The notes under the pieces: model-generated | Told to the model about the DNA's origin: nothing | What the model saw: the letters and a program-made list of their open reading frames with translations, nothing else | The model's database searches: none | Program-made: the position numbers and the translations under genes | Assembly (NCBI GenBank): GCA_002389295.1 | Contig: DGOE01000041.1 | Span: 15,080 to 79,079 of the forward strand | DNA: 64,000 nt | Reading direction: 5' to 3' | From: Flavobacteriales bacterium UBA4474 | GTDB taxonomy: Bacteria > Bacteroidota > Bacteroidia > Flavobacteriales_D > Sanyastnellaceae | Shown here: positions 5,303-48,248 of the stretch, one piece after another | How the letters are laid out: each line of letters begins with the position of its first letter | Numbering within the stretch: position 1 is the stretch's first letter

Positions 5303-8300
5303 ATGTTATCCATTGCCAGATTAACGCTGCTCCGCAGTGCAGGTTTGATTGTTGCTTTTTTCTGCTTGTCCTCTTGGAGCGTTGAAGCCCAAGACACCAT
5401 ACCCGCAGCGTGGGCAGGCTCACTTTCCGGAAGCCAAATCGCCAGCTTTGAGGTGACCGCAGGATGCAGTCTGCTCTCGTTTGACATCAGCTTGGACATC
5501 GTGGCCCCCGGCAGCAATTGGGCAGGTGACATGGCCCTGGCCATTACCGCGCCCAATGGCAACCGCATCGAGGTGGGTGGCTACAATGTCAATTTCGGGT
5601 ACGTGGATGCAGGAGGCTGGCCCAGCGGGTGGAACACCAATGCAGACGGAAACTTCACCGCATCCATGACCGGGCTTGACCAATACAACCTCGCGGGGTC
5701 TGGATGCTGGCTGATTGAAGTCATGAACGCGTGGAACTCAGCCGCATCGAGCGACTATGTGATGTCCTTGGATCTGATTGGCTTGTGCAGTGAAGGAGAC
5801 TTGGAGGGCTGCACGGATCCAGCGGCGCTCAACTACAACGCTTGTGCCATGCTGGATGATGGCAGCTGCCTCTACCCCCCGCTTTCCGCCAACTTCGATT
5901 GGACATCGAGCTGTGGATTGCCCCTCACGGCCAATTTCAGTGACGAGAGCATGGGCAATGTGGTCACCTATGATTGGAGTTTTGCTGGAGGCACCCCTGC
6001 GACCAGCAGCTCGGCTTCTCCGGAGGTGGTTTGGGACGCCCCTGGAACTTTTGAAGTCACATTGACCGTGGGTGACGGCGCCGGAGGCACTTCCACCAAC
6101 ATGGGCACCATTGACGTAGGAGAAAACCTCCACCGCCTCGAAATCGACATTGTGCCCGATGGGTTTCCCCAAGAAACCTCTTTCGTCGTGGTCACCGAAG
6201 CCGGGGACACCTTGCACACCGGAGGTGCGGAAGGCCTCGATGTCTGTATCCCCGATGGGTGTGTTTCCGTGTGGATGTACGATTCGGGTGCAGATGGCTT
6301 TTCCATCGGTGGCACCTACCAAATTCGCTACGACGGCACTGTCCTGCGCGATGGTGAACACTTCGATGCGGCCCTGCTGACCCTGGTGGGTTGTCCCGAA
6401 GGAAGCAGCTGTGACAGCGCCATCGACTTGTTGTTGCCCCCCAACGGAGACACCTTGTCCTTTGTGGCCCCCTTGTCCAGCACTTGGTATTACTTCCAAG
6501 TCGATACCACGGGACAGTACCGCTTTTCCACCTGCGACTTGACCGGCTGCGACACGCGGATCCACCTGTATGATTACTGCGACATGGCGGTCTTTGAGAC
6601 TTCTTCGGAGGCCTTCATCACCATGTCGGATGACGATTGTGGCCTCCAAAGTGTGGTCACACCGGTGCTCATCTCGGGAGAGACCATCTACATCCAAATC
6701 GAAGGAGACGGCGATTGCAATGCCGGGGCCGGCGGCGTGCCTTTTGAAGCCCACTATTTGGGTGGCATCCCGGGCTGCATGAACATCGAAGCCTGCAACT
6801 ACCTGCCCATCGCGACCACCGCCGACACCTGCTATCTGGCCGGCGATCCGGAATGTCCCAACATCGGCCCCGACCTCATCATCAATGGTCCCCGGGCTTA
6901 CAGCACACTGGAGATGACGCTGGAAAACAGCTCCGACGGCTGCATGATTGAAGAGGGCTGTATTCAGGGGTATGGCTCGCGCGAAATCGTGCGCTTCGAC
7001 ACCGAAATCGCCAACATCGGCACCGAAGACTATTTCATCGGCGCCCCTTCGGCCCAGCCCGACCAATTCGAGTGGGACGCCTGTCACAACCACTACCACT
7101 ATGAGGGTTATGCCGAATACGCATTGTACGATGCCAGTGGCTCCCCCCTCCCCACCATCGGCTTCAAAAACGGTTTCTGTGTATTGGACCTGGGCAGTTG
7201 CAACTACGGCGGCGGTCCCCAGAAGTACACCTGCTCCAACATGGGCATCACCGCAGGTTGTCAGGACATATACTCCCGCTACCTCGATTGCCAATGGGTC
7301 GACATCACCGACCTCGACGCTGGGGACTACACGTTGGTCATTCGCGTGAATTGGGACTACAGCCCCGACGCCAATGGCAGCTACGAGTTGAACTACGCCA
7401 ACAATGCTGTGGCCGTCTGCTTCTCATTTGAGCGCGACGCCAGCGGTACCGCCATCAACTTCGCCAAGTATGAAGACTGCCCTGTACCGGTGGACTGCCT
7501 GGGACACCCCTTCGGCTCGGAGGAACCAGACTGTGCCGGCAACTGTCCGGGCTTTCTGGTCAAGGGCGATCTGGACCAAGACGGCGAAGTCGACGCGGAC
7601 GACCCCTTGCTCTATGCAGACTTGCTCATTGACGGGGTCGAATCTTCAGCGCCCTGCGTGGACCTCAATGGCGACGGCACGCTGAGCATCACCGATGTTG
7701 CGCTGGCCGCAGACTGCGCCCATTTGGGACACAACCACCTCGGAGACAATGGTGTGGAAGACCACTGCGATTGGAATGGGCCCTTGCTGGTGCCGGATGA
7801 GGAGGTCATGTTCTCCTTGATCCTTCCGCACGAAGACTCCAGTTTTGTCGACCTGTATGTCCACAACCCACAGACCTGGCTGAGCGGTTGGTCGGTGCAA
7901 CTCGACGGCGCTGCCTTCACGGCATTGACGCCCTTGTTTGATACCACGGGCTTTTCCCACTACTTCCACCTGTCCGCTTCGGGCATGGTCTTTGGCGTGG
8001 CCCTCGAGGACAGTTTGGTGCACAAGAGCACCCTTCCACAACCCCTCGTTCGCTTGCACTTTACAGATGCAGCGGCAGAAATCTGCATGATCGGCAATGC
8101 CGAAGTCACGAACCACGACCGCCACAACGTTGCGGCTTCCGCCACAGGTTGCATAGTCCCGGGCACCTTCTGCCTCGGCGACATCAACGACAACGGCATC
8201 CGCGATGTGGGCGACCTGCTGGTGGCCCTCGGGATTTTTGGTTGCAATACGGATTGCGGACCGGCCGATGTGGATGGGGACGGGATTGTAGGGGTCAATG

Positions 8301-8344
8301 ACCTTTTGATCATGCTCGGCCTCTTTGGAGACCCCTGTCAATAA
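5303..8344 (+). CDS. Secreted multidomain lysyl-oxidase-like copper amine oxidase with tandem dockerin-like C-terminal tail
   Basis: Signal peptide. PKD-like segment (NFSDESMGNVVTYDWSFAGG...FEVTLTVGD). PPC-like segment (SCDSAIDL...WYYFQVDTTGQYRFSTC...DTRIHLYDYC). Two GC..ACNY modules. LOX catalytic domain, internal dockerin-like pair, and a C-terminal double tail. No T9SS CTD. Confidence 0.85.
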   Translation: MLSIARLTLLRSAGLIVAFFCLSSWSVEAQDTIPAAWAGSLSGSQIASFEVTAGCSLLSFDISLDIVAPGSNWAGDMALAITAPNGNRIEVGGYNVNFGYVDAGGWPSGWNTNADGNFTASMTGLDQYNLAGSGCWLIEVMNAWNSAASSDYVMSLDLIGLCSEGDLEGCTDPAALNYNACAMLDDGSCLYPPLSANFDWTSSCGLPLTANFSDESMGNVVTYDWSFAGGTPATSSSASPEVVWDAPGTFEVTLTVGDGAGGTSTNMGTIDVGENLHRLEIDIVPDGFPQETSFVVVTEAGDTLHTGGAEGLDVCIPDGCVSVWMYDSGADGFSIGGTYQIRYDGTVLRDGEHFDAALLTLVGCPEGSSCDSAIDLLLPPNGDTLSFVAPLSSTWYYFQVDTTGQYRFSTCDLTGCDTRIHLYDYCDMAVFETSSEAFITMSDDDCGLQSVVTPVLISGETIYIQIEGDGDCNAGAGGVPFEAHYLGGIPGCMNIEACNYLPIATTADTCYLAGDPECPNIGPDLIINGPRAYSTLEMTLENSSDGCMIEEGCIQGYGSREIVRFDTEIANIGTEDYFIGAPSAQPDQFEWDACHNHYHYEGYAEYALYDASGSPLPTIGFKNGFCVLDLGSCNYGGGPQKYTCSNMGITAGCQDIYSRYLDCQWVDITDLDAGDYTLVIRVNWDYSPDANGSYELNYANNAVAVCFSFERDASGTAINFAKYEDCPVPVDCLGHPFGSEEPDCAGNCPGFLVKGDLDQDGEVDADDPLLYADLLIDGVESSAPCVDLNGDGTLSITDVALAADCAHLGHNHLGDNGVEDHCDWNGPLLVPDEEVMFSLILPHEDSSFVDLYVHNPQTWLSGWSVQLDGAAFTALTPLFDTTGFSHYFHLSASGMVFGVALEDSLVHKSTLPQPLVRLHFTDAAAEICMIGNAEVTNHDRHNVAASATGCIVPGTFCLGDINDNGIRDVGDLLVALGIFGCNTDCGPADVDGDGIVGVNDLLIMLGLFGDPCQ
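6868..7432 (+). other. Lysyl oxidase (LOX)-like catalytic domain
   Basis: PDLIINGPRAY...CMIEEGC...REIVRFDTEIANIGTEDYF...FEWDACHNHYHYEGY...IGFKNGFCVLDLGSC...GCQDIYSRYLDCQWVDITD...NYANN aligns motif-for-motif with animal LOX: WEWHSCHQHYH copper site, HKASFCLED lysine, GCYDTY tyrosine and DCQWIDITD. Confidence 0.8.
7529..7723 (+). other. Internal two-segment dockerin-like (EF-hand-like Ca-binding) module
   Basis: DCAGNCPGFLVKGDLDQDGEVDADDPLLYADLLIDG....APCVDLNGDGTLSITDVALAADCAH contains two D-x-[DN]-x-DG-x-[VIL]-x-x-x-D loop-helix segments. Confidence 0.55.
8168..8341 (+). other. Tandem Cys-bracketed dockerin-like C-terminal tail (two copies)
   Basis: FCLGDINDNGIRDVGDLLVALGIFGCNTDCGPADVDGDGIVGVNDLLIMLGLFGDPCQ* runs up to the stop codon. 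Confidence 0.7.
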
Positions 8345-34571: not shown

Positions 34572-37500
34572 TTATTCGCAAGCCTGTCCGAATGCACCGA
34601 GGACGATCAACAGGTCGCCCACCGCAGTGGCACCGTCACCGTCGATATCCGTAGGACAATCGCTGGCCCCCGTGAAGATGCATGAGCCATCATCCGAACT
34701 GGAGGCGGGGTTGTAGTTGTCCGCATCCGCATAAGTGCAACCAAATACGAGCGGGGTAGCACAAGATCCATCGTCGCTTCCTGCGAAGGGGCTGAACTCA
34801 GCACTCAGCGGGTCGGTACAACCGGCACACGCCTCACAGCTGTTAAAGCAGACCACATCCAACGTCATGTCAGAACCGGCCACGGTCACCAGGCGGTTGA
34901 ATCCGCCCTGTCCATTGTCGGCACCACAGTCGGCTGGAACTGTTTCCTGACCATCCCAAACGTTGCCGTTGATGAAGATGTACTGATAGGAGCCATTCGC
35001 AAGCTGCACGGTGTACTCATACAAGCCCAAACCAGGGGTCGTCATGGGCGTCGATCCGGGGTCCCAACCTTGGAACGCACCCGCAACGTGAACACCTTCA
35101 GCAGAGACCGCTTGGGTGCTCATATCGAGTCGAATGGTCACCACGTAAGCACATGAACCATCGTCCGCGACCGCATCCGCATCGTAGTTCTGTGCGTCAG
35201 CGTCGGTACACCCTGTCGCTGCGTCACATGCGTAGCAAGAATTCCAGCAGACCACATCCAATGTGGATGCGCCCGCCACGTCGAAGGTTCTGTTTGTGAA
35301 ACCATCAATGGTGCTTGTGCAAACAGCGCTGGGGTCGAAGTTCTCCTGATCAGACCATCCGTCTACAGTGAACTTGTATTCCACTGTTCCGATAGCCAAG
35401 TCCACCGTGACTTCGTAGACGTTGTCCGAATCATCGTCGGTCATGGTGATGCAAGCACCACACCAACCGGCGAAACTTCCGTTGAGGTTTACCATGCCGT
35501 AAGTACCGCTGTAACCGTCCATGTCCACCTGGAAGGTGACAGGATACGTACAGCTGCCATTGTCGTCGGTCGCTATGTCAGAGTAGTTGGTTGCCGAAGC
35601 ATCGGTACATCCGAAAATCTGACCTCCGCCTTCACAGTCGGAACAGCTGTTCCAGCAAACGACCGGCTCGCTCTGGTCACCCGCCACCTGCAACACACGG
35701 TTGGTGAAACCGAAATTCTCGGTGACACAAGCACCAATACCGGCCAGGTTCTCCTCTGCCGTCCAGCCGTTCACCGTGTACTTGTACTCGTAGTAATCAT
35801 AGGCCAACTCAATGGTTGCACTGTACACTCCATCGCCATCCTCATCGAGGAGCGCGTTGCAAGGACCACACCAACCATTGAACGTGCCGTTGACATACAC
35901 GGAATCGAGATCTGCCAGCGGGTATTCCGCCATGTTGACACTGAAAGTCACGTCGTAGAGACAGCTGCCATTATTTGCAGTGGCCGCTGCATCATAGTTG
36001 GAGGCGGCATCGTCGGTGCAACCGAGAACGGCGTCACCGGCAGCGCACTCCAAGCAGGATGCCCAACACACGACTCCCAGATCAATGGCGTCCAAACTTG
36101 ACACATCCAGGTCGCGGTTCGTGAAGCCGCCCGCCGTGCGGACGCAAGGTCCAACTTGATCACCACCTGGGGCAAGGTCTTCCTGATCAGCCCAACCATC
36201 AACCTGGTACTTGTAGGATTGATTCTCTCCCTCCGGTACGATGAGGGTGCCGGACCAAATACCGTCCAAATCATCATCTGTCAACTGGTTGCAGTCGCCA
36301 CAGAATTCATTCCAAGAGCCGGACACATTAACGAAGCCAAACGTGCCGCCGTAGTTGTTCATGTCTACGGAGAAGGTGACCTCTGCGCCGACCACGCCAC
36401 CGCCACAGGCAGAGCAGCTGTTGAAACAGACCACGTCGAGTGTCTCGTCGGACCCACTGCGGTCATGTGTGCGGTTGAAACCACCCACACCATTGTCAAC
36501 GCCGCAACCTCCAGCAGCGAAGTCAGCGGTCTCGCCGCCTTCCTCAGTACCTGCACCGTTCGGGTAGGGGTTGCCATTGAAGAACTTGTAAGAAATGCCT
36601 GCAGGTCCTGAAATCAGCGCGGTCGCGGTGTACACCAAGTCACCGTCTGAATCGTCCATCAGAATGGCGCCGGCCTGCCACACGGGATCCGTGAAGCTTC
36701 CGATCATGTAAACACTGTCTGCAATCAAGTCCGTTACCTCGCTCATGTCCACCTGGAAGGTGACGTTCGCTGGATCGGGATCAACAGCGCATTCGGTAGC
36801 CTCACCGCACTGAGCGAAACAGCCGGTGTAAGAGACGGGGCCAGAACCGTCAACAGTAAGGGATCGGTTGCCTCCGCAATCCAATTCCTCCCATCCTCCT
36901 GCCCCATTCTGGAACTTGAACTCGTAAGCGCCCGCCTCGAGGTCGAGGGTAATGGACCAGCTGCCGTCTCCGTTGTCGGACATGGCGGTACCGGACCAAC
37001 CTTCAAAGGCACCCGCTGCGTACATGCCATCACCTGCCACGGTGATGTTGTCGGCCAAGACCGTCAAAGTCGCCGCATAGGTGGCCGCACCGCAAGGGTT
37101 GCAGCTTGCGTAGCAATGCACAGGGTGGCTGTAATCAGAGGTCGGGACATCGAAACCGCGGTTGGTATCACCGGGGTACTGACAATCTCCAGGAACAGTC
37201 TCCTCGAAGCCCCAAGCCGTTCCATTCATCCACTTGTACTGAACGTTGGTGCCAGGAGCAGCGTTGAAGCTGTAGGACCAAGTGCCGTCACCATTATCGG
37301 TGGCCAGGGTAGAACCCGGAGACCAACCTTGGAATGAACCCGCAACGAAGACTCCAATGGGGTTGACCTCCTCTTCGCTCATGTCCACCGTGATGGTCAC
37401 CATCACGCTGTCGGGGCCGGCACCACAGGGGGTGCATGTATCATAGGTATCGGCAATATTGCCGTCGGTCACCATCCACTGGCGGTTGGCGTAGTTGGCG

Positions 37501-39632
37501 TAGTCCGTAACCGGGGCGCAATCTGCGCCATCCACCATGTCTTGGATCAGGTTTTCCTGCACACTGTTGACCACCCAGAGGTACTCCATGGTCTCACTCG
37601 GAGCGGGATCAAACGTCACCTCCCAAAGGCCGGACGTTCCGTTGACAGTGGCCTCCGGACCACCAGCGGGGTCCCAGCCCCACCAAGGGCCTGTCAGTCT
37701 TACGGACGTCACATCGGCAACACCACTGCAGCTCACGTCCAACGTGGCCAAGAGGGGCTCGGTGGGCGGAGCGGAGCAGGATCCGTCCGTGCTGCACTCG
37801 GCGAAACACGTTGAAATGGTCGTATCCGAGACGATGTTCACCAGTTGGCGGTCGTTGAAGTTGGCCGGATCACCACAGGGAAGCCCGGAGAGGTTTTCCT
37901 TGCAGGAGTAGTCGGTGCAGGCGCCATTGGCAAACGTGTAGAAGCCGGTGTAGCCTGAGTCGAGATCCAACGTAATCGTCCAGATGTCGTCTCCGTCCGT
38001 GTCGGACATGGGGTTCGTACCCGGCGCACCAAAGTCAGCACCACCTGCCAAGAACACGCCTTCGGGCGAGGTGGCCTGGTTGGCCATGTTGACGTTGAGG
38101 GTCACGGAGACCGTTGTAGGATCGACGGGATTACCTCCGCCGCTTTCACAGGTGTCGCATGAGTTGTAGCATACCACGTCGAGGGTAGCATCCGCAGTAA
38201 CAATGATGGAACGGTTGGTGAAACCATCGATCGTGGACGTGCAGGACTCGCCGCCGGCGAATTCCTCCTGTGCCGTCCATCCGTCCAAGGTAAACTTGTA
38301 TTCCAGGGTGTCTGCGGGAACACTTGCAGTCAAGGTGTAGATGTTACCTCCTGCAGAAGCCATAGGAGCGCAAGGACCACACCACCCGTTGAAGCTTCCG
38401 TTGAGGTTGACCGTGCCATAGCTGCCCGTGTAATCGCTCATATCCACTTGGAACGTGACGTTGTATTGGCAAGAGCCATCATCGTAATCGGCCGCACCAT
38501 TGTAGTTGTTCGCTCCGGAATCGAGACATCCTCCTACACCTGCGGTGTTCTGCTCGTCACACGTTCCGCAGAAGTCGAAGCATTGAACAGCGAGTACCGT
38601 ATCTGCTACTCCGAGGTTGAAACCGCGGTTTCCGAAAGCATCACCGGGTATGAAGTCACATGCCGTGCCGCCGATGTTCTGCTCGTCTCCGCCCCAGGCG
38701 TTGATCATGTACTTAAACTCGTACCCTTGGCTGGGGGCGAGTGCCATGTCCACCGTGTAGACATTGTCTCCATCTGAATCGTCCATGGCCGTGCAGGGAC
38801 CGCACCATCCGTCAAAAGATCCCGTGACGTAAATGGTCTCTCCACCGGTCAAACCGGCGTTGGACATGTCCACCTGGAAGGTGACGATCGGCTCGTAGGA
38901 TGGTGTCTCACAGGAACCATCCGTAGTGCACTGGCTGAAGCAAGTGCTGATGGTCGTGTTCTCGGTGATGTTGCTCAAGAGACGATCACTGTAGGGACCA
39001 TCCGCACAGGGCTGACCGTTGATGTTCTCCTTGCAGCTCCAGTCGCCGCAGTTGCCGTTCAAAAAGGTGTAGTTCCCCGTGTAACCAACCGCCACAGGCA
39101 TGGTGATGGTCCAGATGTCGTCACCGTCGGTGTCGCTCATCGGATTGTCTCCGGCTACGCCAAAATCAGCGCCGCCCGCCAGGAATACACCATCTGGCGA
39201 AGTGGTCTCATTGGCCATGTTCACATTGAACGTGACGTCCACCGTAGAGGGACCTGCCGCTTCCACGATGATGGTTCCCACCATGCCCTGGGCCGCGTGT
39301 GAGCCGATGCTGCAGTCGTAAGTGTAGGTTCCGGGGGTGTTCAATGTCACCGTGCCCATGCAGACACCGCCTACCGAGCCGCTGTTGGCCCCGAGGGAGA
39401 AATCCTCCGGGTTGCCAAAAGACGTTCCCGTTTGGGTATCTGTCACGCCGTTCACATTGTGAAATCCGCCTTCATTGAGAAAGGCGATCGATTCACCAGC
39501 GGTGACAGTCAGCGTTGAGGGATTGTAATAATAGTTGCCTGCGAGCACGGTGTGGTCTGCACCGGTGCAGTCTTGAGCCTGAATTGAGCTGTAGCAGAAT
39601 ACAGCGAGGCTGAGCAGCAAAATATTGCGCAT
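34572..39632 (-). CDS. Giant (1686 aa) secreted protein: N-terminal cupredoxin + 12 CBM-like beta-sandwich repeats + 6 Cys modules + dockerin-like tail
   Basis: Start at MRNILLLSLAVFCYSSIQAQ (39632). Repeats have the form VTF.VDM....g.V.v.GsFnGWcg.c..M.DdDgD.vYt.t..l..g..EYKf.vdgW...E. Modules of GCTD...NY.....DDGSC.Y lie between repeats. Ends in CPTDIDGDGATAVGDLLIVLGAFGQACE*. Confidence 0.85.
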   Translation of the reverse strand: MRNILLLSLAVFCYSSIQAQDCTGADHTVLAGNYYYNPSTLTVTAGESIAFLNEGGFHNVNGVTDTQTGTSFGNPEDFSLGANSGSVGGVCMGTVTLNTPGTYTYDCSIGSHAAQGMVGTIIVEAAGPSTVDVTFNVNMANETTSPDGVFLAGGADFGVAGDNPMSDTDGDDIWTITMPVAVGYTGNYTFLNGNCGDWSCKENINGQPCADGPYSDRLLSNITENTTISTCFSQCTTDGSCETPSYEPIVTFQVDMSNAGLTGGETIYVTGSFDGWCGPCTAMDDSDGDNVYTVDMALAPSQGYEFKYMINAWGGDEQNIGGTACDFIPGDAFGNRGFNLGVADTVLAVQCFDFCGTCDEQNTAGVGGCLDSGANNYNGAADYDDGSCQYNVTFQVDMSDYTGSYGTVNLNGSFNGWCGPCAPMASAGGNIYTLTASVPADTLEYKFTLDGWTAQEEFAGGESCTSTIDGFTNRSIIVTADATLDVVCYNSCDTCESGGGNPVDPTTVSVTLNVNMANQATSPEGVFLAGGADFGAPGTNPMSDTDGDDIWTITLDLDSGYTGFYTFANGACTDYSCKENLSGLPCGDPANFNDRQLVNIVSDTTISTCFAECSTDGSCSAPPTEPLLATLDVSCSGVADVTSVRLTGPWWGWDPAGGPEATVNGTSGLWEVTFDPAPSETMEYLWVVNSVQENLIQDMVDGADCAPVTDYANYANRQWMVTDGNIADTYDTCTPCGAGPDSVMVTITVDMSEEEVNPIGVFVAGSFQGWSPGSTLATDNGDGTWSYSFNAAPGTNVQYKWMNGTAWGFEETVPGDCQYPGDTNRGFDVPTSDYSHPVHCYASCNPCGAATYAATLTVLADNITVAGDGMYAAGAFEGWSGTAMSDNGDGSWSITLDLEAGAYEFKFQNGAGGWEELDCGGNRSLTVDGSGPVSYTGCFAQCGEATECAVDPDPANVTFQVDMSEVTDLIADSVYMIGSFTDPVWQAGAILMDDSDGDLVYTATALISGPAGISYKFFNGNPYPNGAGTEEGGETADFAAGGCGVDNGVGGFNRTHDRSGSDETLDVVCFNSCSACGGGVVGAEVTFSVDMNNYGGTFGFVNVSGSWNEFCGDCNQLTDDDLDGIWSGTLIVPEGENQSYKYQVDGWADQEDLAPGGDQVGPCVRTAGGFTNRDLDVSSLDAIDLGVVCWASCLECAAGDAVLGCTDDAASNYDAAATANNGSCLYDVTFSVNMAEYPLADLDSVYVNGTFNGWCGPCNALLDEDGDGVYSATIELAYDYYEYKYTVNGWTAEENLAGIGACVTENFGFTNRVLQVAGDQSEPVVCWNSCSDCEGGGQIFGCTDASATNYSDIATDDNGSCTYPVTFQVDMDGYSGTYGMVNLNGSFAGWCGACITMTDDDSDNVYEVTVDLAIGTVEYKFTVDGWSDQENFDPSAVCTSTIDGFTNRTFDVAGASTLDVVCWNSCYACDAATGCTDADAQNYDADAVADDGSCAYVVTIRLDMSTQAVSAEGVHVAGAFQGWDPGSTPMTTPGLGLYEYTVQLANGSYQYIFINGNVWDGQETVPADCGADNGQGGFNRLVTVAGSDMTLDVVCFNSCEACAGCTDPLSAEFSPFAGSDDGSCATPLVFGCTYADADNYNPASSSDDGSCIFTGASDCPTDIDGDGATAVGDLLIVLGAFGQACE
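34575..34658 (-). other. Cys-bracketed dockerin-like C-terminal tail
   Basis: CPTDIDGDGATAVGDLLIVLGAFGQACE* lies directly at the stop codon. Confidence 0.7.
39261..39563 (-). other. Plastocyanin/azurin-like type-1 copper (cupredoxin) domain
   Basis: NPSTLTVTAGESIAFLNEGGFHNV....PGTYTYDCSIGSHAAQGMVGTIIV. Candidate ligand set is His (FHN), Cys (YDC), His (GSH) and Met (QGM), with the canonical C-x(n)-H-x(n)-M spacing. Confidence 0.7.
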
Positions 39633-39817
39633 TGGGTTTGGGTTACAGTTTGGTTCTTTCCAAGAACGAGCAATATAGTCCGAGAAGGTGTACTTCATAC
39701 ACCAAGTGCATATTCTTGGGAATAACTTGGGTATTATCAGGAAGCAATGGCCATTTAATGGTTGTGTACCATCCGTCAATACAGCGGCACAGTCTTTTTC
39801 GAAATGGACCTCGACGT

Positions 39818-41191
39818 TTACAAATTTGCCTCCACCAAACCGTCTGAACGCAAGTCTGAACGCCGAATGAAGAGGTTGAGTAGGCCGGCAATGATCAAAC
39901 TTATACCTGCCAGCACCATGGTCTGAATCACGTCTTCTCCCAAAAATGTTTTGTACGCCCAGTTGATTCCGCCCAGGGCAGCTGCAATCTGTGGGATGAC
40001 AATAAACATGTTAAACACGCCCATGCCCACGCCCATTCGATCGGCGGGAATGGCCCCGGAGAGCATGGCATAAGGCATACTCAATATGCTGCCCCAAGCG
40101 ATGCCGATCAACGCGAAACTCCACTTCAGGTTGCCAGCGGTTTCAGGTGTCCAGAGTACCATGGTCAGAAAGCCCACCCCGCCGAGCGTCAGGCTCGCCA
40201 AGTGTATCAACCTCTGGTCTATGCCTCGGCGGCTCGTCCATACTGAGAGAAGCAGCGCAAAAACCATGCTGCTCAGGCCATACACCCCCATGGCGCTCGA
40301 AACGGCGTTGGCCGCCTCGTTGTACGCGGCACTCAACACATTGAAGTCCTCCACACCATCCTGGGGCAAGGCAGCCGCAAAAACATGCTCAGTGAGCGCA
40401 GGGGTAGCAAAAGACCACATGGTGAAAAAGGCGAACCAACTGAAAAACTGGACCGCACCCAACTTGACCATGACACTCGGCATCCGCGCTATGAATGCGG
40501 AAATTTCCAAAGCGCCTGCGAACAGTCCGCGCTTTTCTGCCCGCTCAAGTTCAAATGCAGCCATGTCAGCCGGAGGTTCTTCTGTCGTCTTGAATACGGT
40601 GTAGAGAATGCTCGTCATGAATACGAAAGCACCTACCGCAAAGGAGACGTAAACGCTTTGGGGAATCTCACCCGCTCCGGCTTCATTTGATACGCCCATC
40701 GCGGTGACGAACCAAGGAAGGTTGGAGGCCACCCACGTTCCAATCCCAATGATCAAGGTCTGCAACACAAAGCCGTAGCTCCGCTGCTCCTCAGGCAGTT
40801 TGTCGGCCACCAATGCCCGGAACGGTTCCATGCTAATGTTGATGCTCGCATCCAAAATCCAGAGAAAGCCTGCCGCCATCCACAACGCAGAACTATATGG
40901 CATGAAGAACAAGGCCAGCGAACTGAATACCGCGCCGAGCAGGAAGTATGGCCGCCGTCTGCCCCACCGCGGATGCCAGGTCCTGTCGCTGAGATAGCCG
41001 ATTATGGGCTGCACCAACAGCCCTGTCAATGGTGCTGCAATCCACAGCATCGGGATCTCGTCCTTGGATGCTCCGAGCGTTTGAAAAATCCGAGACATGT
41101 TGCCCCCTTGGAGGGCAAAGCCGAATTGGATGCCGAGAAACCCGAAACTCATGTTCCAGATTTCCCAAAAGGAAAGCCGTTTGGTGTTCAT
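39818..41191 (-). CDS. SLC45/GPH-type MFS sugar:H+ symporter (sucrose/maltose-transporter-like)
   Basis: 12 TM helices. N-terminus SFWEIWNMSFGFLGIQFGFALQ. Signature LSDRTWHPRWGRRRPYFLLGA after TM2. Confidence 0.8.
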   Translation of the reverse strand: MNTKRLSFWEIWNMSFGFLGIQFGFALQGGNMSRIFQTLGASKDEIPMLWIAAPLTGLLVQPIIGYLSDRTWHPRWGRRRPYFLLGAVFSSLALFFMPYSSALWMAAGFLWILDASINISMEPFRALVADKLPEEQRSYGFVLQTLIIGIGTWVASNLPWFVTAMGVSNEAGAGEIPQSVYVSFAVGAFVFMTSILYTVFKTTEEPPADMAAFELERAEKRGLFAGALEISAFIARMPSVMVKLGAVQFFSWFAFFTMWSFATPALTEHVFAAALPQDGVEDFNVLSAAYNEAANAVSSAMGVYGLSSMVFALLLSVWTSRRGIDQRLIHLASLTLGGVGFLTMVLWTPETAGNLKWSFALIGIAWGSILSMPYAMLSGAIPADRMGVGMGVFNMFIVIPQIAAALGGINWAYKTFLGEDVIQTMVLAGISLIIAGLLNLFIRRSDLRSDGLVEANL

Positions 41192-41264
41192 TGCCTCAAA
41201 TTGAAATGCCCCCGACCAATGGCCGGAGGCATCAAAAGTAATTCAGGTCTGTGCCGGCCTGCAA

Positions 41265-43568
41265 TCAGGGGCAGGTGCTGTCGAAACTCGAAAGGAAGTC
41301 CACGAGGTCGGCAGCGCCGATCAGGCCATCACCAGTGGTATCAAACGGACATGACGAGCCTGTGGTGAACGTGCACGTGCCGTCGTCAATGGTCATGGTG
41401 TCGTCATAATTGTCCGCGTCTGCATATGTGCAACCCGCGCAGCTTTCGTAATCGCAATCACCTGAGTCTGTATTGGCGCTGGCGTCATAATTACAAGCAT
41501 AGGCGTCCAAACAACCATTGATTGGCGCGCTTTCTCCATCGGTAATGACCGCGTCGTCAGAGTCCGCCTCTCCTCCACCTCCACTTTCCGAGGAAATGCT
41601 GGAATCGTCCGTGAAGTCTTGTCCGGTGATGCTCCGCTCAGCAGAAGCATTCTCTGCAGTGTAGGTCAAACCCGCTTGGAAGAAGAAACTCTCCCCCAAA
41701 GGCATGGTGACCCGTGCAATGCGAACCGCATTGGCACAACCCGGACGGTTCAATAATTCCTCGCACCTGTTGGTTGGCTCACCCCCCGTTTCTCCGACGA
41801 TCTCCCACCCCAGCGTATCTCCGTCAGCCGCCAGCAATTCGCTGTCAAACTCAGTGGCAGAGGAAACGGCTGCCGTGTCAAAGCCGATGGCTTGAAGTGC
41901 CGGCCCCGAACCAATGGTGCCCCCAATGGTAAACCACGAATCAGCCAAGCAGTCTCCATTGAAGTATTCCGCGCCGTCCACCTCTACAGAGGCATCCATA
42001 TAATGCGGCATCCAGACGTCGCAGCTCGCGGACTGGTAAACAGCGCTAAACGGCTCGATGCGCAAGCGGGTTTCTCCATTTTTGACACCGAGTACCCGCT
42101 TCAAACGGATGGCGTCGGGTGGCAACAATGCATAGACCTCATTGGTATAGGTGCCAGCAGGAGCCCCAGCACCGTTGTAATTCGTACTGATGGGGGCTAT
42201 GGCCAGGATACCCGCGAAGACACAATCGGAATCATCCGAGATGATGGCGCTGGCGTTATAGTTGGTGGCCTCCGGATTGGTGCACCCCGCGCAGGACAGG
42301 TATTCACATATGGCCTCGGTCTGAATCTGTGCTTCGGGGTCGTAGTTACACGCTGCGGGATTAGAGCATCCTCGGCACGACAAAAACTCACAGTTGTCTT
42401 CAGTTGTCGGCACTTCAGGATCAAAGTTGCACGCCAATGGATTGCCACAGCCTTCCTCAGCCGAGCCCACGTCCTCGATACAGTTCCCATCCTCATCTGG
42501 GATGGTCAAATTCGGGTTGGTGTCATCGCAATCAATGGGCTGATAAGCATAAGCTTCCCCAAATTCAGAACAGTTGATATTGAAAGGAGACCCAATCAAA
42601 TCCGTCGTGTCTGCACTGCGGTAATTGTCGTTGTCAACGTCCCTAAAGCAAGTCTCGGCCCCATCGCAGTTTCCATCGATGCCGTCACCGACCAAATCCA
42701 TCGGATTGCCCGGATATGCCAGCGCCGTGCCGTCGTTGCAATCCCCGCCTTGTGTGGCGTATCCCGGTCCTCCTCCGCAGAGTTCTACAGGGGTCGTACC
42801 GTAACCATCTCCATCATTGTCCACATAAAACGTTGATGGATAAACACATTCGCACGGAGCTCCAATCATGAATGTCTCAATGTCCCACTGATCATCTCCA
42901 AATTGACCTTCCGGAAAGACCTGGATGTTGATGTTGCCAGAAAGCACGCCATCTGTAGTGAATTGTCCGAGCAGCACCCTGCCCGTCGTGTCCGGATAGC
43001 CGTTGGCATCGCCATTGAGCACATACCACGCTCCGCCTACAGCATCATCCATGGCCACGTTGCCCCCACCGTTGAATGAAACATCCCAAGCCTGAGCAGG
43101 AGAGGTGACGTATGAAACCGCGGCTTCTCCCTCGGCCGTGTTGGGAACAGCTTCGATACCGATCGAAACCCAGCTGTCATATGCAAGTGAAGGAAATGTG
43201 GAGTACAGCGTCGGGAAGATGCCATTGGGCGTGGTTCCGCCCAATGCATCCTGATAAAAACTGGTGGTCGTCTCGATGGCCAATGGGTATTCGGCATCAC
43301 CGAAAACGGCCGAAACGAAATCCATGGGGTGAGCCGAAACGAAATACAGCCTGTAGGTGGTCATCCCCGATAAAGGCCCTTCACCGTGCACATAGACCGT
43401 ATCCAATTCCAAACAGTATGGCCCCGCAGTTGGATTGTAGTTGCAAGCGGATTCATCCAGACAAGCCTGTCCAAAGACTTGACTTGCGCAAAAGCACAGC
43501 ACTAATGCCAAAAAACGATCGAAGCGGATACGGAATGGGTTCATTGTGTGATAGTTGGGATGACTCAA
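41265..43568 (-). CDS. Secreted 767-aa protein: YRLY...DSWVSIG...GRVLLGQFTT domain(s), 6 Cys modules, dockerin-like tail
   Basis: Signal peptide ...LVLCFCASQVFGQ. No catalytic motif recognised. Ca-binding-like D-rich stretch (DNDGDGYG, DGIDGNCDG, DVDNDNY). Ends in CPFDTTGDGLIGAADLVDFLSSFDSTCP*. Confidence 0.8.
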   Translation of the reverse strand: MSHPNYHTMNPFRIRFDRFLALVLCFCASQVFGQACLDESACNYNPTAGPYCLELDTVYVHGEGPLSGMTTYRLYFVSAHPMDFVSAVFGDAEYPLAIETTTSFYQDALGGTTPNGIFPTLYSTFPSLAYDSWVSIGIEAVPNTAEGEAAVSYVTSPAQAWDVSFNGGGNVAMDDAVGGAWYVLNGDANGYPDTTGRVLLGQFTTDGVLSGNINIQVFPEGQFGDDQWDIETFMIGAPCECVYPSTFYVDNDGDGYGTTPVELCGGGPGYATQGGDCNDGTALAYPGNPMDLVGDGIDGNCDGAETCFRDVDNDNYRSADTTDLIGSPFNINCSEFGEAYAYQPIDCDDTNPNLTIPDEDGNCIEDVGSAEEGCGNPLACNFDPEVPTTEDNCEFLSCRGCSNPAACNYDPEAQIQTEAICEYLSCAGCTNPEATNYNASAIISDDSDCVFAGILAIAPISTNYNGAGAPAGTYTNEVYALLPPDAIRLKRVLGVKNGETRLRIEPFSAVYQSASCDVWMPHYMDASVEVDGAEYFNGDCLADSWFTIGGTIGSGPALQAIGFDTAAVSSATEFDSELLAADGDTLGWEIVGETGGEPTNRCEELLNRPGCANAVRIARVTMPLGESFFFQAGLTYTAENASAERSITGQDFTDDSSISSESGGGGEADSDDAVITDGESAPINGCLDAYACNYDASANTDSGDCDYESCAGCTYADADNYDDTMTIDDGTCTFTTGSSCPFDTTGDGLIGAADLVDFLSSFDSTCP
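41268..41351 (-). other. Cys-bracketed dockerin-like C-terminal tail
   Basis: CPFDTTGDGLIGAADLVDFLSSFDSTCP* lies directly at the stop codon, preceded by GCTYADADNYDDTMTIDDGTCTF. Confidence 0.7.
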
Positions 43569-43708
43569 TATAGCGAGTCCATCAAATAATCAGCGCTGAT
43601 ATTCGTCATTATCCCCATCCGCACCCACGAATAGAATGTAATGCAGACCCTGCCTACATGGATTCCGGAAACCAATACAGTTGGACATTAGCGCTTAACT
43701 GGCCTTGT

Positions 43709-45451
43709 TTATTCTCCACATGGTTGTCCATATAAAGAAAGGAATACCAAAAGGTCAGCGGATCCGATCAGACCGTTGTCATCGGTATCAAACGAACAGC
43801 TTCCGCCTCCATCGCAATCAAATTCGCAGGACCCATCATCCAAATCAGCATCGGCATCATAGTTCGTGGCATCCCCATAGGTACATCCTTGCGTTCCTAC
43901 AATCAGGAATTCGCACGTCCCATTGTCTTCCGTCGCATTGGCGTTGTAATTCTGCGCATCTGCATCGGTACAACCTGAAATCTGGCATGAACCATCGTCA
44001 TCTGTGGCGGCGGGATTGTAATTGTCTGCGGTGGGGTCCGTGCAACCAGGCACTTCATTTTCATCGCAAATGCCATCTTCATCAGCATCGTTGAGACAAT
44101 TGCCGTCGCAATCCACAATATTGTTCGGGTAGTCTACAGGGTACTCACAGAGCGTATCATCAATGATTACGGCCTGTGGGTTGTAGTTGCAGGCTTCGGC
44201 ATCCGAGCAGCCTGCGCAGCTCAAGAAATCACAAGACCCATCATCAAAGTCAGCGGCGGGATCGTAGTTGCAGGCACCGGCATCCGTGCAGCCCGGTGTC
44301 ACAACAGGGAAAGTCAATGTTGTCCCCGTCACTTGAATGTTTGTCCCAGCAGAATTGCGGTATTGGATGTTGAGCAAAATGTCCACGATGCCATCTGTGG
44401 TGAATTGTCCGAGCAAAACCCGACCATCATCATCTGGGAAGGCCGCAGGCTCCAAATTGGGCAAGATGTACCATGTGCCCCCCACAGGGTCGTTCACTTC
44501 GATATTGCCTCCCGCCTCGAAGGCCAAAAAGTCAATGCCGATGAAATCAACAGACCCCGTATTGTCATCGGAACCGATGGTCACCCATGAATCGTATGCC
44601 AAATTGGGGAAGGAGGGAAACAGGATGGGATTGATGGTGTTTGATAACGAACCACCCAATACATCTTGGTAGAACGAACCTGTTGTCGTGATGCTGAGCG
44701 CAGTATCCTGCAAGCCGTACACGGCCACAACTTGAGCGCCGGGGTCCGCCAAATTCGCGTAGACCCGATAAGTATCGAAGCCTGCCGCTGTGGTGTTTTC
44801 TGCTACGAGCTCATAAGAGAGGCCTTCAAAGTCGGTCTGCTCATAGCCCACGGAAATACCGGTCTCGTTGAAGACGTTGAGGTTTTCATCGCGCCACTGA
44901 ATGTTGCACAGCATGTTCCACCCTCCCGTTGTGGTCAACTGGGCGAGCAGCACGCGGCCGTCTGCATCAGGTTGCGCTTGGACTTGGTTTGGCGTCACAA
45001 AGACACTGCCGCCTACACCATCATTGACGAAGAAATCGCCCCCGTTCTCAAATGCGAGAGAAGCCGAAGACCAGGCAGCGCCGCCAACGGCACCAATGTT
45101 GCTCGGCAGGCTGCTGTCCTCCTGCCCCAGCGTGATCCAAGAATCATAGATCAGATTTGGAAAAGAAGCGTAGAGCAGCGGATTGATGGATTCAGGGGTG
45201 TAGTTCCCAAATGCGTCCTGGTAAAAACCGGCCGTCGAGGTGATGGACAAGGCAGAAGGCGCTTCTGCATACAAAGCCTGGGCGATGTCCGTCGGGTTGT
45301 CAAAATTGGCGTAGACCCTGTAGGTGGTGCCCACAGACGACGTGGCCACTGTTTCGTAGGTCAATCCTGTGAATTCAGCTTTAGAGGTGAAACCCAACAG
45401 GAGCAAGGACGCCGCAATGCATAAACGGCGTAGAGGAAAGTACTTTGGCAT
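43709..45451 (-). CDS. Secreted 580-aa protein: two YRVYA...DSW[IV]T[LI]G...GRVLL.Q.TT domains, 5 Cys modules, dockerin-like tail
   Basis: Start at MPKYFPLRRLCIAASLLLLGFTSKA (45451). Two about 160-aa internal repeats. GCTDAGACNYDPAADFDDGSCDF and related modules. Ends in CSFDTDDNGLIGSADLLVFLSLYGQPCGE*. Confidence 0.8.
   Translation of the reverse strand: MPKYFPLRRLCIAASLLLLGFTSKAEFTGLTYETVATSSVGTTYRVYANFDNPTDIAQALYAEAPSALSITSTAGFYQDAFGNYTPESINPLLYASFPNLIYDSWITLGQEDSSLPSNIGAVGGAAWSSASLAFENGGDFFVNDGVGGSVFVTPNQVQAQPDADGRVLLAQLTTTGGWNMLCNIQWRDENLNVFNETGISVGYEQTDFEGLSYELVAENTTAAGFDTYRVYANLADPGAQVVAVYGLQDTALSITTTGSFYQDVLGGSLSNTINPILFPSFPNLAYDSWVTIGSDDNTGSVDFIGIDFLAFEAGGNIEVNDPVGGTWYILPNLEPAAFPDDDGRVLLGQFTTDGIVDILLNIQYRNSAGTNIQVTGTTLTFPVVTPGCTDAGACNYDPAADFDDGSCDFLSCAGCSDAEACNYNPQAVIIDDTLCEYPVDYPNNIVDCDGNCLNDADEDGICDENEVPGCTDPTADNYNPAATDDDGSCQISGCTDADAQNYNANATEDNGTCEFLIVGTQGCTYGDATNYDADADLDDGSCEFDCDGGGSCSFDTDDNGLIGSADLLVFLSLYGQPCGE
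43712..43798 (-). other. Cys-bracketed dockerin-like C-terminal tail
   Basis: CSFDTDDNGLIGSADLLVFLSLYGQPCGE* lies directly at the stop codon, preceded by GCTYGDATNYDADADLDDGSCEF. Confidence 0.7.
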
Positions 45452-45521
45452 GGTAACCTGAAGATACGAACCAACCCCTGCGCGAGCCGCAGACCAAGAG
45501 GTGATTTTTGTCACTGCTGTC

Positions 45522-47165: not shown

Positions 47166-47177
47166 GGATGCTGGCTC

Positions 47178-48248
47178 TCAGCCTTTGTTGCGGCCCAAAC
47201 AGTTCAGGTCGTCAAACGCCTGTGTCAACCGCTGGACGAAATACTGCTCACCTTGCCGCAACCAAACGCGCGGGTCGTACCGCTTCTTGTTGGGCTGATC
47301 GGCACCATCGGGATTGCCTATCTGAGACTGCAAGTATGGCGACCACTCCCCCACGTAATCCCGCACGCCGCTGAGGTAAGCCCACTGCATGTCGGTGTCG
47401 ATGTTCATCTTGACGGCACCGTATGAGATGGCTTCCCGAATCTCATCGACGCTGCTGCCCGATCCTCCGTGGAAGACGAAGTTCACCGGACGTGGACCTG
47501 TGCCGTGCTTGGCAGAAATGTGCTCCTGGCTGTTCTTGAGGATCACTGGAGTCAGCTCCACATTGCCTGGCTTGTACACGCCATGTACGTTTCCAAATGC
47601 TGCCGCCACTGTGAATTGCGGACTCACGGCGCCGAGCTGTTCAAAAGCGTAGGCGACTTCTTCGGGCTGCGTGTAGAGGTGCTTGGCATCGAGGTCTGTA
47701 TTGTCCACGCCATCTTCTTCGCCACCCGTAACGCCCAATTCGATTTCAAGGAACATGCCCAAAGGCGCCATGCGCTTCAAATACTCCACGCATGTGGCGA
47801 TGTTCTCTTCGATGGGCTCTTCGCTCAGGTCAATCATGTGCGAGGAAAACAAGGGCGCACCATGAGTGGCGTGGTGCTGCTCTCCGCGGTCCAGCAGCCC
47901 ATCAATCCAGGGCAACAGTTTCCGAGCGCAGTGGTCTGTGTGCAGCACGACGGGAACGTCATATGCACGGGCCATTTCATGCACATGCAGTGCTGCAGAA
48001 ACGCTGCCGTGCACTGGCCCTGCTTGATTGTTGAGCTTCAGGGATTTGCCGGCATAAAAAGCCGCTCCACCGTTTGAAAGCTGCACGATGACTGGAGAGC
48101 CCACAGAAGCTGCAGTCTCGAGCGTGGCATTGAGTGAATTCGTGCCGATGATGTTGACTGCGGGCAATGCGTAGCCTTTGGCCTGCGCATCATCAAAAAG
48201 GGCATCAACTTCCTCACCGTGGAGTACGCCTGAACGAAAATTGGACAT
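47178..48248 (-). CDS. fbaA: Class II fructose-1,6-bisphosphate aldolase
   Basis: 356 aa. GYALPAVN, VVLHTDHC, E.E.GVTGGEEDGV, FGNVHGVYKPGNV, FVFHGGSGS. Confidence 0.95.
   Translation of the reverse strand: MSNFRSGVLHGEEVDALFDDAQAKGYALPAVNIIGTNSLNATLETAASVGSPVIVQLSNGGAAFYAGKSLKLNNQAGPVHGSVSAALHVHEMARAYDVPVVLHTDHCARKLLPWIDGLLDRGEQHHATHGAPLFSSHMIDLSEEPIEENIATCVEYLKRMAPLGMFLEIELGVTGGEEDGVDNTDLDAKHLYTQPEEVAYAFEQLGAVSPQFTVAAAFGNVHGVYKPGNVELTPVILKNSQEHISAKHGTGPRPVNFVFHGGSGSSVDEIREAISYGAVKMNIDTDMQWAYLSGVRDYVGEWSPYLQSQIGNPDGADQPNKKRYDPRVWLRQGEQYFVQRLTQAFDDLNCLGRNKG

Follow-up and report, generated by a model that had tools for sequence, protein, structure and literature searches.

Four secreted proteins encoded in the 64,000-nucleotide stretch of marine Flavobacteriales DNA that we analysed (the window) end in a Cys-bracketed sequence resembling half of a dockerin, with both halves present in one of the four. 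In the other three, the tail appears from its sequence to be one dockerin F-hand, corresponding to half of the GC-type dockerin with its two repeats and four Cys, and more than 100 large exoproteins of uncultured Flavobacteriales end exactly in this conserved single-repeat form. We put at about one half the probability that the tail, at the mature C-terminus of exoenzymes and glycan-binding proteins exported through Sec, is a tag for Ca2+-dependent docking and not an export signal.

Tail-bearing genes of the window

The three single-tail genes adjoin in one conserved cluster. Protein 1 (34572..39632, minus strand; 1686 aa, with its start codon checked and metagenome gene calls also giving 1686 residues) has a signal peptide, an N-terminal cupredoxin domain and about 10 CBM48/CBM20/X25-like modules, as judged by Pfam and NCBIfam matches, followed by a composite tail; CTD-type Cys modules separate the CBM48/CBM20/X25-like modules from one another. 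Next to its stop codon (34572-34574, minus strand), translation gives the single Cys-bracketed F-hand tail CPTDIDGDGATAVGDLLIVLGAFGQACE (34575..34658, minus strand), which scores 51 bits with the tail HMM. This is preceded by a Tyr-variant two-Cys module and a 7-residue spacer, GCTYADADNYNPASSSDDGSCIFTGASD (34659..34742, minus strand), and together with the tail these make up a 56-aa composite C-terminal domain. Protein 2 (41265..43544, minus strand; 759 aa) consists of a signal peptide, an unknown N-terminal domain, a MopE-like metal motif, Cys modules and a composite tail. Its single F-hand tail, CPFDTTGDGLIGAADLVDFLSSFDSTCP (41268..41351, minus strand; identified by translation and the tail HMM), likewise follows a Tyr-variant module and spacer, GCTYADADNYDDTMTIDDGTCTFTTGSS (41352..41435, minus strand). 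Protein 3 (43709..45451, minus strand; 580 aa) has a signal peptide, the unknown N-terminal domain in two copies, four Cys modules and a composite tail. The single F-hand tail CSFDTDDNGLIGSADLLVFLSLYGQPCGE (43712..43798, minus strand) was identified by the same two means, and the Tyr-variant module with its 9-residue spacer, GCTYGDATNYDADADLDDGSCEFDCDGGGS (43799..43888, minus strand), contains a fifth Cys, a form found in 18 of 101 composites.

Protein 4 is encoded on the plus strand (5303..8344; 1013 aa) and carries a signal peptide, a PKD domain, a lysyl-oxidase-like domain, an internal conventional dockerin-like pair (7562-7705, plus strand) and a tandem Cys-bracketed dockerin tail. Repeat 1 of this tail, CLGDINDNGIRDVGDLLVALGIFGC (8171..8245, plus strand), and repeat 2, CGPADVDGDGIVGVNDLLIMLGLFGDPCQ (8255..8341, plus strand), were both identified by translation and the tail HMM, and the stop codon follows at 8342-8344 (plus strand).

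An earlier note on this DNA had quoted these tail peptides, and translation confirms that all of them are present and that each runs to a stop codon. The note gave the right positions for the three single tails and left their strand unstated; they read correctly on the minus strand alone. The tandem pair lies on the plus strand at 8171-8341; the note's start of 8168 is one residue ahead of the first Cys. A profile HMM built from the five copies and run against the six-frame stop-to-stop segments of the window returned those five copies alone, at 46-55 bits each, the next-best match having E = 1.9. Because the HMM returns only those five in six frames, the five copies are not due to chance. All five are C-terminal, and the four proteins are secreted, as had been claimed, since each has an N-terminal Sec-type signal peptide (4/4). 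The anatomy described for the tail also holds: one 12-residue Ca2+-type loop, then an amphipathic helix, bracketed by Cys residues.

Relationship to dockerins and EF-hands

For the tandem tail of protein 4, AF2 gives a model with a pLDDT of 90.9, whose top 32 Foldseek matches are all dockerins, the best being 2Y3N_B (TM 0.81/0.83, rmsd 0.9 A). The tandem tail is confidently predicted by this model to fold as a bona fide dockerin. The 'GC-type dockerin' model that the earlier note mentioned does exist, as NCBIfam NF041540, which spans two repeats and 67 positions and has a curated cut-off of 29 bits. The match of protein 4 to this model is weak (14.6 bits over its full length and 18.1 bits when the last 100 aa are scored, both below the cut-off), and homologous tandem tails score 23-78 bits, with P0024, P0037, P0013 and P0030 passing the cut-off. 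By these scores the tandem tail of protein 4 is a sub-threshold relative of NF041540. The note also mentioned such tails in other phyla, and related tandem tails are indeed present in Phycisphaerales. Like the window tails, NF041540 has a Cys-Pro-x, a D-x-N-x-D-G loop, a DLLxxLxxFG/WG helix and then Cys, and its Cys-flanked repeats lie at the extreme C-terminus of multidomain signal-peptide proteins. Protein 4 carries its full two-repeat, four-Cys form. Unlike NF041540, the three single tails have one repeat each, and they are coupled with a Tyr-variant Cys module absent from that model; NF041540 gives no match to them at E <= 10. A literature search for the NF041540 family found no paper.

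No match to the three single tails was found among the Pfam and NCBIfam models. When scored against profiles of the individual repeats, the single tails reach 47.5 bits with the repeat-2 profile and 42.0 bits with the repeat-1 profile, repeat 2 being higher in 45 of 47. The best PDB sequence matches of the tails are the dockerins 2CCL, 2Y3N and 1OHZ together with calmodulin EF-hands, in agreement with the dockerin/EF-hand affinity proposed earlier. PF00404 matches none of the tails at E <= 0.1, and its sole match in protein 4 is an internal segment at 16.8 bits, against a gathering threshold of 22.9; many homologous tandem tails have a precomputed PF00404 match. PF00404 dockerins have a pair of tandem F-hand segments, each about 22 residues long; the single tails have one such segment and the tail of protein 4 has two. 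Like the tails, the cellulosomal dockerins of PF00404 (2Y3N_B, 2CCL_B and 1OHZ_B) have a loop of F-hand chemistry in which position 12 is Asp, a helix after the loop, and a location at the C-terminus of extracellular enzymes. Classical dockerins differ from the single tails in having two repeats and no Cys bracket, and they bind cohesins in Gram-positive cellulosomes, whereas the single tails occur in diderm, T9SS-bearing Flavobacteriales.

A canonical EF-hand identity was considered and rejected, as the tails have no entering helix (Cys-Pro-x stands before the loop) and position 12 is Asp, not Glu, in 101 of 101 tails. The combination of Cys-Pro-x and Asp12 reads as the pattern of a dockerin-type F-hand.

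A composite C-terminal domain and its conservation

The earlier note treated the 28-aa tail as the unit, which proved too narrow for the single tails, where the functional unit is a larger composite of about 56 aa that includes the Tyr-specific variant of the upstream module. At the C-terminus of the single-tail proteins, three elements make up a composite domain of 56-59 aa: the two-Cys spacer module in its Tyr variant (GCT-Y-xDAxNY-x6-DDGSC-x-F), a spacer, about 7 residues long (exactly 7 in 64 of 100), and one dockerin-type F-hand, made up of Cys-Pro-x, the loop D-x-N/D-x-D/N-G-x-V/I-x-x-x-D, the helix DLLxFLxxFG and a final Cys. The upstream motif reported for the three proteins, GCTY[AG]DA[DT]NY...DDG[ST]C.F, is common to all of them. 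Position 4 of the module is Tyr in all three window composites and in 23 of 23 loci tails not matching the seed pattern. Among internal modules, 27 of 466 have Tyr there; in the modules ahead of tandem tails it is D or N (11 of 11). The single tail is thus coupled to the Tyr variant of the upstream two-Cys module. When 96 composites were analysed for mutual information, no clear couplings between module and tail emerged.

Scanning species-representative genomes yielded 202 related stretches, the majority from uncultured Flavobacteriales, to which nearly all of the best 80 loci belong; 79 loci were fetched, with flanks of 10 kb or less. This HMM scan of relatives bears out the C-terminal placement of the motif, with 103 of 105 tail-bearing reading frames ending in the tail; of the 105, 102 are single-copy at the exact C-terminus, 1 is a double and 1 is internal. 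The last Cys lies 0-2 residues before the stop in 99 of the 102 single-copy tails. Across 101 tails, the loop is conserved at D1 (100%), N/D3 (93%), D/N5 (97%), G6 (93%), V/I/T8 (100%) and D12 (100%), with Cys at -3 in 96%. The DLLxFL segment is predicted to be helical. The hydrophobic helix positions are nearly invariant, and the roughly 100 tail sequences otherwise show just 41-82% identity to the window's own composite tail. Signal peptides are present in 69 of 75 full-length carriers, whose cargo includes GH16, subtilase S8, esterase, CBM48/CBM arrays and lysyl oxidase. Strict four-Cys tandem tails end the protein in 53 of 150 top representatives. The carriers come from uncultured organisms, and a literature search found no experimental study of them.

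The carriers of the tail form a sizeable group of large secreted enzymes and glycan-binding proteins in abundant uncultured Flavobacteriales of marine and fresh waters, and this group (GH16, subtilases, CBM arrays) carries none of the known T9SS sorting domains. A profile of the 56-aa composite would let annotators flag carriers that are now annotated 'hypothetical protein', and would allow a second class of exoproteins, beside T9SS cargo, to be read out at the genome level.

Possible roles in docking, pairing and export

The earlier note had proposed attachment, sorting or oligomerisation as the role of the tail. Attachment or oligomerisation is the best reading of our results, and sorting is unlikely. 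By homology with dockerins, the loop would bind Ca2+ and the tail would dock to a putative partner. A lone F-hand would be unable to bury its helix, and its fold must therefore be completed in cis or in trans. In the cis route, the Tyr-variant module would pack onto the F-hand helix. In the trans route, a second tail would pair with the first and recreate a dockerin-like two-F-hand bundle, which Cys(-3)/C-terminal-Cys pairs could lock covalently. We slightly favour cis completion because of the strict Tyr coupling of the module to the single tail. Such docking would, in the manner of dockerins, hold the carrier proteins at the cell surface or assemble them there. To our knowledge, textbooks treat dockerins as two-repeat modules, and half-dockerins have so far been studied as engineered truncations. 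A conserved natural single-repeat form, putatively Cys-locked, coupled to a Tyr module and borne by more than 100 exoproteins, is a test of how small a docking unit can be.

Completion in trans was considered in its own right. EF-hands and F-hands fold in pairs, and the unpaired EF5 of penta-EF-hand proteins (calpain, sorcin) mediates dimerisation. Like EF5, the single tail would be a Ca2+-loop-plus-helix unit that is unable to fold alone and is completed by another chain's copy. Unlike it, EF5 is a cytosolic, eukaryotic helix-loop-helix with Glu at position 12, has no Cys bracket and is not a C-terminal tag, and the likeness extends to the working principle only. In the trans reading, the lone F-hands of two tail proteins, the same or different, would pair antiparallel, with Cys(-3) of one chain bonded to the C-terminal Cys of the other, giving covalent, cohesin-free homo- or heterodimers. 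We hold this reading tentatively, as rather doubtful. The disulfide pattern, which we take from homology, bears on it: the earlier note had suggested an intra-repeat disulfide closing the hairpin, and dockerin geometry suggests otherwise. The dockerin residues immediately preceding loop 1 touch the far C-terminus of repeat 2 and not that of repeat 1, and residues -1 to -3 form with the C-terminus a terminal 'clasp' that is stabilising and non-covalent (PMC3821032). Likewise, the AF2 tandem model has a beta-bridge from loop-1 residue 14 to Pro59, adjoining the last Cys, which brings the C-terminal Pro-Cys to loop 1. Pairing in trans is also favoured by the adjacency of the three single-tail genes in a conserved cluster, by the odd, fifth Cys of protein 3 orthologs, and by the AF2 model of the composite monomer, which is not confident (pLDDT 54, with the F-hand helix alone predicted). 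That low confidence may simply reflect an alignment of just 13 sequences, however, and the strict Tyr-module coupling and fixed 7-residue spacer point to a cis partner. In its most specific form, in which single tails are natural half-dockerins that self-dock in trans without cohesin through two intermolecular disulfides from Cys(-3) to the C-terminal Cys', we judge it unlikely. If pairing in trans were true, the three proteins encoded side by side could dock to each other, and there would be a self-assembling, covalent complex of exoenzymes and glycan-binding proteins on the surface of abundant uncultured marine Flavobacteriales. It is a sub-variant of the docking-tag explanation with distinct predictions.

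We also weighed whether the tail could be a new class of C-terminal signal for the T9SS, or for another outer-membrane translocation or attachment machinery, that replaces type A/B/C CTDs. T9SS CTDs resemble the tail in that they form the very end of large, secreted proteins of Bacteroidota, with similar kinds of cargo, and the tail's strict C-terminal position (at most 2 residues past the last Cys), a cargo spectrum typical of T9SS substrates, and the lack of a recognised CTD in the carriers, although the organism has T9SS substrates, would all fit such a signal. A precedent outside types A and B exists in NCBIfam NF033708 (type C, ChiA-like). However, the last 100 aa of the four tail proteins give no match to TIGR04183, TIGR04131 or NF033708 even at E <= 10, whereas positive controls from the same window do match, confirming the absence of a T9SS CTD from these proteins. 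The tail differs from the CTDs in size and predicted secondary structure as well, being short and helical where they are Ig-like beta-sandwiches of about 70-100 aa. By sequence comparison, it belongs to none of the T9SS sorting-domain types A, B and C. Canonical CTDs had been ascribed to the window's other large secreted proteins. This is clear for one type B protein (277-3411, minus strand; 78.5 bits with TIGR04131, cut-off 35) and borderline for one type A protein (24559-28191, plus strand; 23.4 bits, cut-off 23), while two divergent type-A-like ends (20943-23378 and 14818-17256, both minus strand) are sub-threshold. Mutual exclusivity between tail and CTD holds in the window and in the 79 related loci, where the tail-bearing proteins have no T9SS CTD. 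It fails at the level of the family: tail relatives co-occur with type A CTDs in single proteins, and P0013 and P0030 each score above the cut-off with both NF041540 and TIGR04183 in one polypeptide, the dockerin repeats lying directly upstream of the CTD. In these Bacteroidota-type proteins, export is the task of the bona fide type A CTD and not of the dockerin. Homologous tandem tails also occur in Phycisphaerales, a planctomycete order in which we know of no T9SS. A role as an export signal is therefore improbable.

Finally, the single tails could be functionless relics of tandem dockerins that have lost repeat 1, as their resemblance to repeat 2 of the tandem form and their absence from the matches of curated models might suggest, but this reading is effectively refuted by the conservation pattern, in which, among about 100 sequences that are otherwise just 41-82% identical to the window composite, D1, D12 and the Cys bracket never vary and G6 and the hydrophobic helix positions hardly do, the exact C-terminal position is kept in 102 of 105, and the upstream module has a co-varying Tyr signature.

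Tail-bearing proteins of the window

The tail peptides quoted in the earlier note are real and form the C-terminal residues of open reading frames, three of them only when read on the minus strand; translation of the plus strand at 34575-34661, 41268-41354 and 43712-43801 yields unrelated sequence. By translation, the long open reading frames that end in single tails lie at 34572-39779, 41265-43568 and 43709-45514 on the minus strand, and the frame that ends in a tandem pair lies at 5303-8344 on the plus strand. Following a check of start codons against metagenome gene calls, the genes were set at 34572-39632(-) for protein 1 (1686 aa), 41265-43544(-) for protein 2 (759 aa), 43709-45451(-) for protein 3 (580 aa) and 5303-8344(+) for protein 4 (1013 aa). 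Each of the four proteins has a Sec-type signal peptide at its N-terminus, and DLLIVLGAFGQACE is an example of a C-terminal tryptic peptide from the tail proteins. When a profile of the five tail copies was searched against all six-frame segments of the window, only those five were recovered, at 46-55 bits each. No sixth copy was found in this search, the next-best match having E = 1.9, and the recovery of the known copies alone rules out a chance motif.

In protein 1, about ten CBM48/CBM20/X25-like modules come after a cupredoxin domain; protein 4 is a PKD and lysyl-oxidase-like protein. In its interior, at 7562-7705(+), protein 4 also carries a conventional dockerin-like pair that lacks a Cys bracket (KGDLDQDGEVDADD…VDLNGDGTLSITDVAL) and scores 16.8 bits against Pfam Dockerin_1, under the threshold of 22.9. 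An uncharacterised domain of about 150 aa occurs twice in protein 3 (44300-45370(-)) and once in protein 2 (about 42900-43360(-)). Its copies are 40-47% identical and share the motif …TYRVYANF…FYQDxxG…NPxL…FPxLxYDSWxTxG…. The domain has no match in Pfam or NCBIfam, and the N-terminal domain of protein 3, used as a query against PDB sequences, matched nothing.

Relation of the tails to dockerins

The "GC-type dockerin" family model mentioned in the earlier note exists as NCBIfam NF041540 (dockerin_GC). Its 67 positions comprise two repeats and align end to end with the tandem tail of protein 4, which stays below the cut-off of 29 bits (the whole protein scores 14.6 bits and its last 100 aa score 18.1 bits). 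When 1.84 billion representative proteins were searched exhaustively with HMMER, 7,566 of them matched at E <= 1e-3. Among the best 150 of these 7,566, two tandem copies are present in 115, a copy ends no more than 5 residues from the C-terminus in 124, and strict four-Cys tandem tails of the form C...G-C-x(1-8)-C...G-x-x-C-end are present in 53. The four-Cys tandem homologues score 23-78 bits on NF041540, several of them over the cut-off, and many tandem homologues have precomputed Pfam Dockerin_1 or EF-hand matches. Some are annotated from Phycisphaerales, in line with the earlier note's mention of similar tails in other phyla. AlphaFold2 modelling of the last 61 residues of protein 4 from an alignment of 43 homologues predicted two helices with a pLDDT of 90.9. 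The best 32 PDB matches to this model are all dockerins, the closest being 2Y3N_B (TM 0.81/0.83, rmsd 0.9 Å over 54 columns). The dockerin homologues, together with the model and its PDB matches, indicate that the protein 4 tail is a genuine dockerin bracketed by cysteines. It is either a divergent member of NF041540 or a neighbour of that family and, compared with NF041540 and the cellulosomal dockerins, the closest known systems, an ordinary though divergent example.

Judged by its sequence, a single tail is one dockerin F-hand. A PDB sequence search with the tail profile matched each of the two segments in the dockerins 2CCL_B and 2Y3N_B as well as single EF-hand loops of calmodulin, in agreement with the dockerin and EF-hand likeness first proposed. 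For 45 of 47 single tails the profile of repeat 2 outscores that of repeat 1 (means of 47.5 vs 42.0 bits). None of the Pfam and NCBIfam models reports the single tails, and we found no literature on GC-type dockerins or on this tail, nor on natural single-repeat dockerins in Bacteroidota. For the dockerin field, the single tail represents a natural half-dockerin.

The single-tail composite, its spread and its fold

An upstream two-Cys module is indeed common to the three single-tail proteins. This module of about 22 aa, GCTDxxAxNY...DDGSCx[YF] with six residues between NY and DDGSC, is a general inter-domain spacer: protein 1 has five copies, protein 3 has four, and the 79 loci taken from a scan of species-representative genomes (L006-L084) contain 466 internal ones. 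It is found in tail-bearing proteins 1-4 and also in the T9SS-CTD proteins 24559-28191(+) and 14818-17256(-). Pfam and NCBIfam do not recognise it, and a literature search for it found nothing. Residue 4 of the 466 internal copies is D in 335, N in 67 and Tyr in 27. In the copy immediately ahead of a single tail, Tyr occupies this position in each of the three window cases and in 23 of 23 tails from the loci that do not match the search pattern and are therefore free of ascertainment bias; all 11 modules ahead of tandem tails have D or N there. Module and tail are separated by a spacer of 7 residues in 64 of 100 cases. Given the context-dependent Tyr and the spacer, the conserved C-terminal unit is a composite of about 56 aa with four Cys (five in the composites of protein 3 orthologs). 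The tail as originally described, a unit of 28 aa, thus stands as a C-terminal Cys-bracketed F-hand, but the unit of the single-tail proteins is larger and includes the Tyr-variant module. In comparison with NF041540 and the cellulosomal dockerins, this composite shares the structural principle but lacks the defining two-repeat feature, falls under the score cut-offs of both families and is a non-member by family definition.

A scan of one genome per species with the module-plus-tail alignment gave 208 pattern matches, and a relative is encoded by 202 of them. Of the best 80 loci, nearly all belong to MAGs of uncultured Flavobacteriales, Crocinitomicaceae or Cryomorphaceae, and five loci come from one 3.48-Mb scaffold. 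A protein homologue search with module plus tail returned only 14 ortholog fragments. A search with the tail profile of every six-frame segment from the 79 loci, which total about 0.7 Mb, found 105 tail-bearing reading frames. In 102 of them there is one copy, and it runs to the stop codon. The remainder are one C-terminal tandem pair, one frame running off its contig and one internal tail. This sole internal single tail, L068:2321-3595(+), is a composite followed by 104 further residues unlike a T9SS CTD. The last Cys lies 0, 1 or 2 residues before the stop in 99 of the 102 single tails, and the Cys bracket is kept in 98. The loop follows the textbook pattern of an F-hand (D1 100%, N/D3 93%, D/N5 97%, G6 93%, V/I/T8 100%, D12 100%) and is preceded by Cys at position -3 in 96% and by Pro at position -2 in 78%. 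This conservation, along with the coupling to the Tyr module, effectively rules out the single tail as a decayed remnant.

A signal peptide is recognisable in 69 of 75 full-length carriers, the others being broken by N runs or frameshifts. The sampled carriers, namely GH16 hydrolases with CBM48-like modules, a subtilase, an esterase, a P-domain protein and CBM arrays, are typical extracellular cargo. In eight loci (L009, L011, L014, L016, L037, L051, L066 and L076), species-representative MAGs labelled Nitrosopumilus, Comamonadaceae or Gammaproteobacteria carry Flavobacteriales-type tail contigs, and L009 holds the entire protein 3 / protein 2 locus. These labels are probably due to mis-binning or mislabelling.

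By homology, the tail would be expected to bind Ca2+ and to dock as dockerins do. An F-hand on its own has no way to bury its amphipathic helix, so the fold of a single tail needs completing. In cis, the Tyr-variant module would pack onto the helix of its own tail, and the Tyr coupling and fixed spacer argue for such a physical contact. In trans, two single tails would pair as two dockerin repeats do. In published dockerin structures, residues -1 to -3 ahead of loop 1 form a stabilising "clasp" with the far C-terminus (PMC3821032), and our AlphaFold2 tandem model has a beta-bridge from loop-1 residue 14 to Pro59, which adjoins the last Cys. Clasp and bridge therefore place Cys(-3) of one repeat beside the C-terminal Cys of its partner repeat instead of its own, a geometry that does not suggest a disulfide within one repeat, the probable closure of the hairpin in the earlier note. 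In a trans dimer of single tails, the clasp geometry would give two intermolecular disulfides. AlphaFold2 modelling of the single-tail composite from an alignment of only 13 sequences gave a pLDDT of 54, and mutual information over 96 composites gave no informative module-tail signal.

Relation to T9SS sorting domains and genomic setting

The source organism possesses T9SS substrates. The earlier view that the other large secreted proteins of the window have canonical CTDs is correct for 277-3411(-), with a clear type B CTD (TIGR04131, 78.5 bits), and borderline for 24559-28191(+), with a type A CTD at 23.4 bits vs a cut-off of 23, but not for 20943-23378(-) and 14818-17256(-), whose C-termini are divergent type-A-like and sub-threshold. 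Even at E <= 10, the last 100 residues of proteins 1-4 match none of the T9SS models for types A, B and C. Together with the co-occurrence of relatives with type A CTDs, this rules out the tail as a CTD of any of these types.

The mutual exclusivity of tail and T9SS CTD proposed from the window holds locally, in 4 of 4 window proteins and 104 of 105 frames of the loci. It fails at the family level, because two database proteins exceed the cut-offs of both NF041540 and TIGR04183: P0013 (40.8 and 38.5 bits) and P0030 (77.9 and 44.1 bits). In both, the dockerin repeats lie immediately upstream of the type A CTD; export is supplied by the CTD, after removal of which the dockerin would be the C-terminal module. 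P0013, P0030 and P0028 represent small proteins and M57-family metalloproteases with 2-5 GC-type dockerin repeats and then a T9SS CTD, which in P0028 (a 56-member cluster) is weak only, unlike in P0013 and P0030. The extreme C-terminal position of the tail, cargo that resembles T9SS cargo and carriers without any CTD would fit a sorting or export signal that replaces the T9SS CTD. We consider this unlikely, since the tail is both helical and short and matches none of the three T9SS signal models, Phycisphaerales have homologous tandem tails, and P0013 and P0030 combine the repeats with a type A CTD just downstream. On Sec-exported proteins of extracellular type that have no known T9SS signal, the tail forms a single F-hand that is bracketed by Cys, strictly C-terminal and homologous to the repeats of GC-type dockerins. 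For work on T9SS and marine Flavobacteriales, it defines a second class of exoproteins. The window also holds two lysyl-oxidase-like paralogs with unlike C-terminal devices, a tandem dockerin in 5303-8344(+) and a divergent type-A-like CTD in 14818-17256(-).

The window has a G+C content of 57% and is 99.96-99.98% identical in nucleotide sequence to marine metagenome contigs; the nearest species-representative genome is the uncultured Flavobacteriales MAG JBDQOI01, at 95-97%. Directly 3' of protein 4, 8369-11809(+) encodes a fused isobutyryl-CoA mutase/GTPase, IcmF (1754 bits), which is ordinary housekeeping with no relation to the tail. The single-tail genes lie in a conserved cluster at 34572-48248(-), in the order fructose-bisphosphate aldolase, glucose-6-phosphate isomerase, protein 3, protein 2, a sucrose/H+ symporter-like MFS gene and protein 1. 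The same order is found in L001-L010 and L056, suggesting a surface locus for glucan capture and uptake that lacks SusC/D. In the metagenome contig L002, the protein 3 gene is broken into calls of 379 aa and 197 aa.
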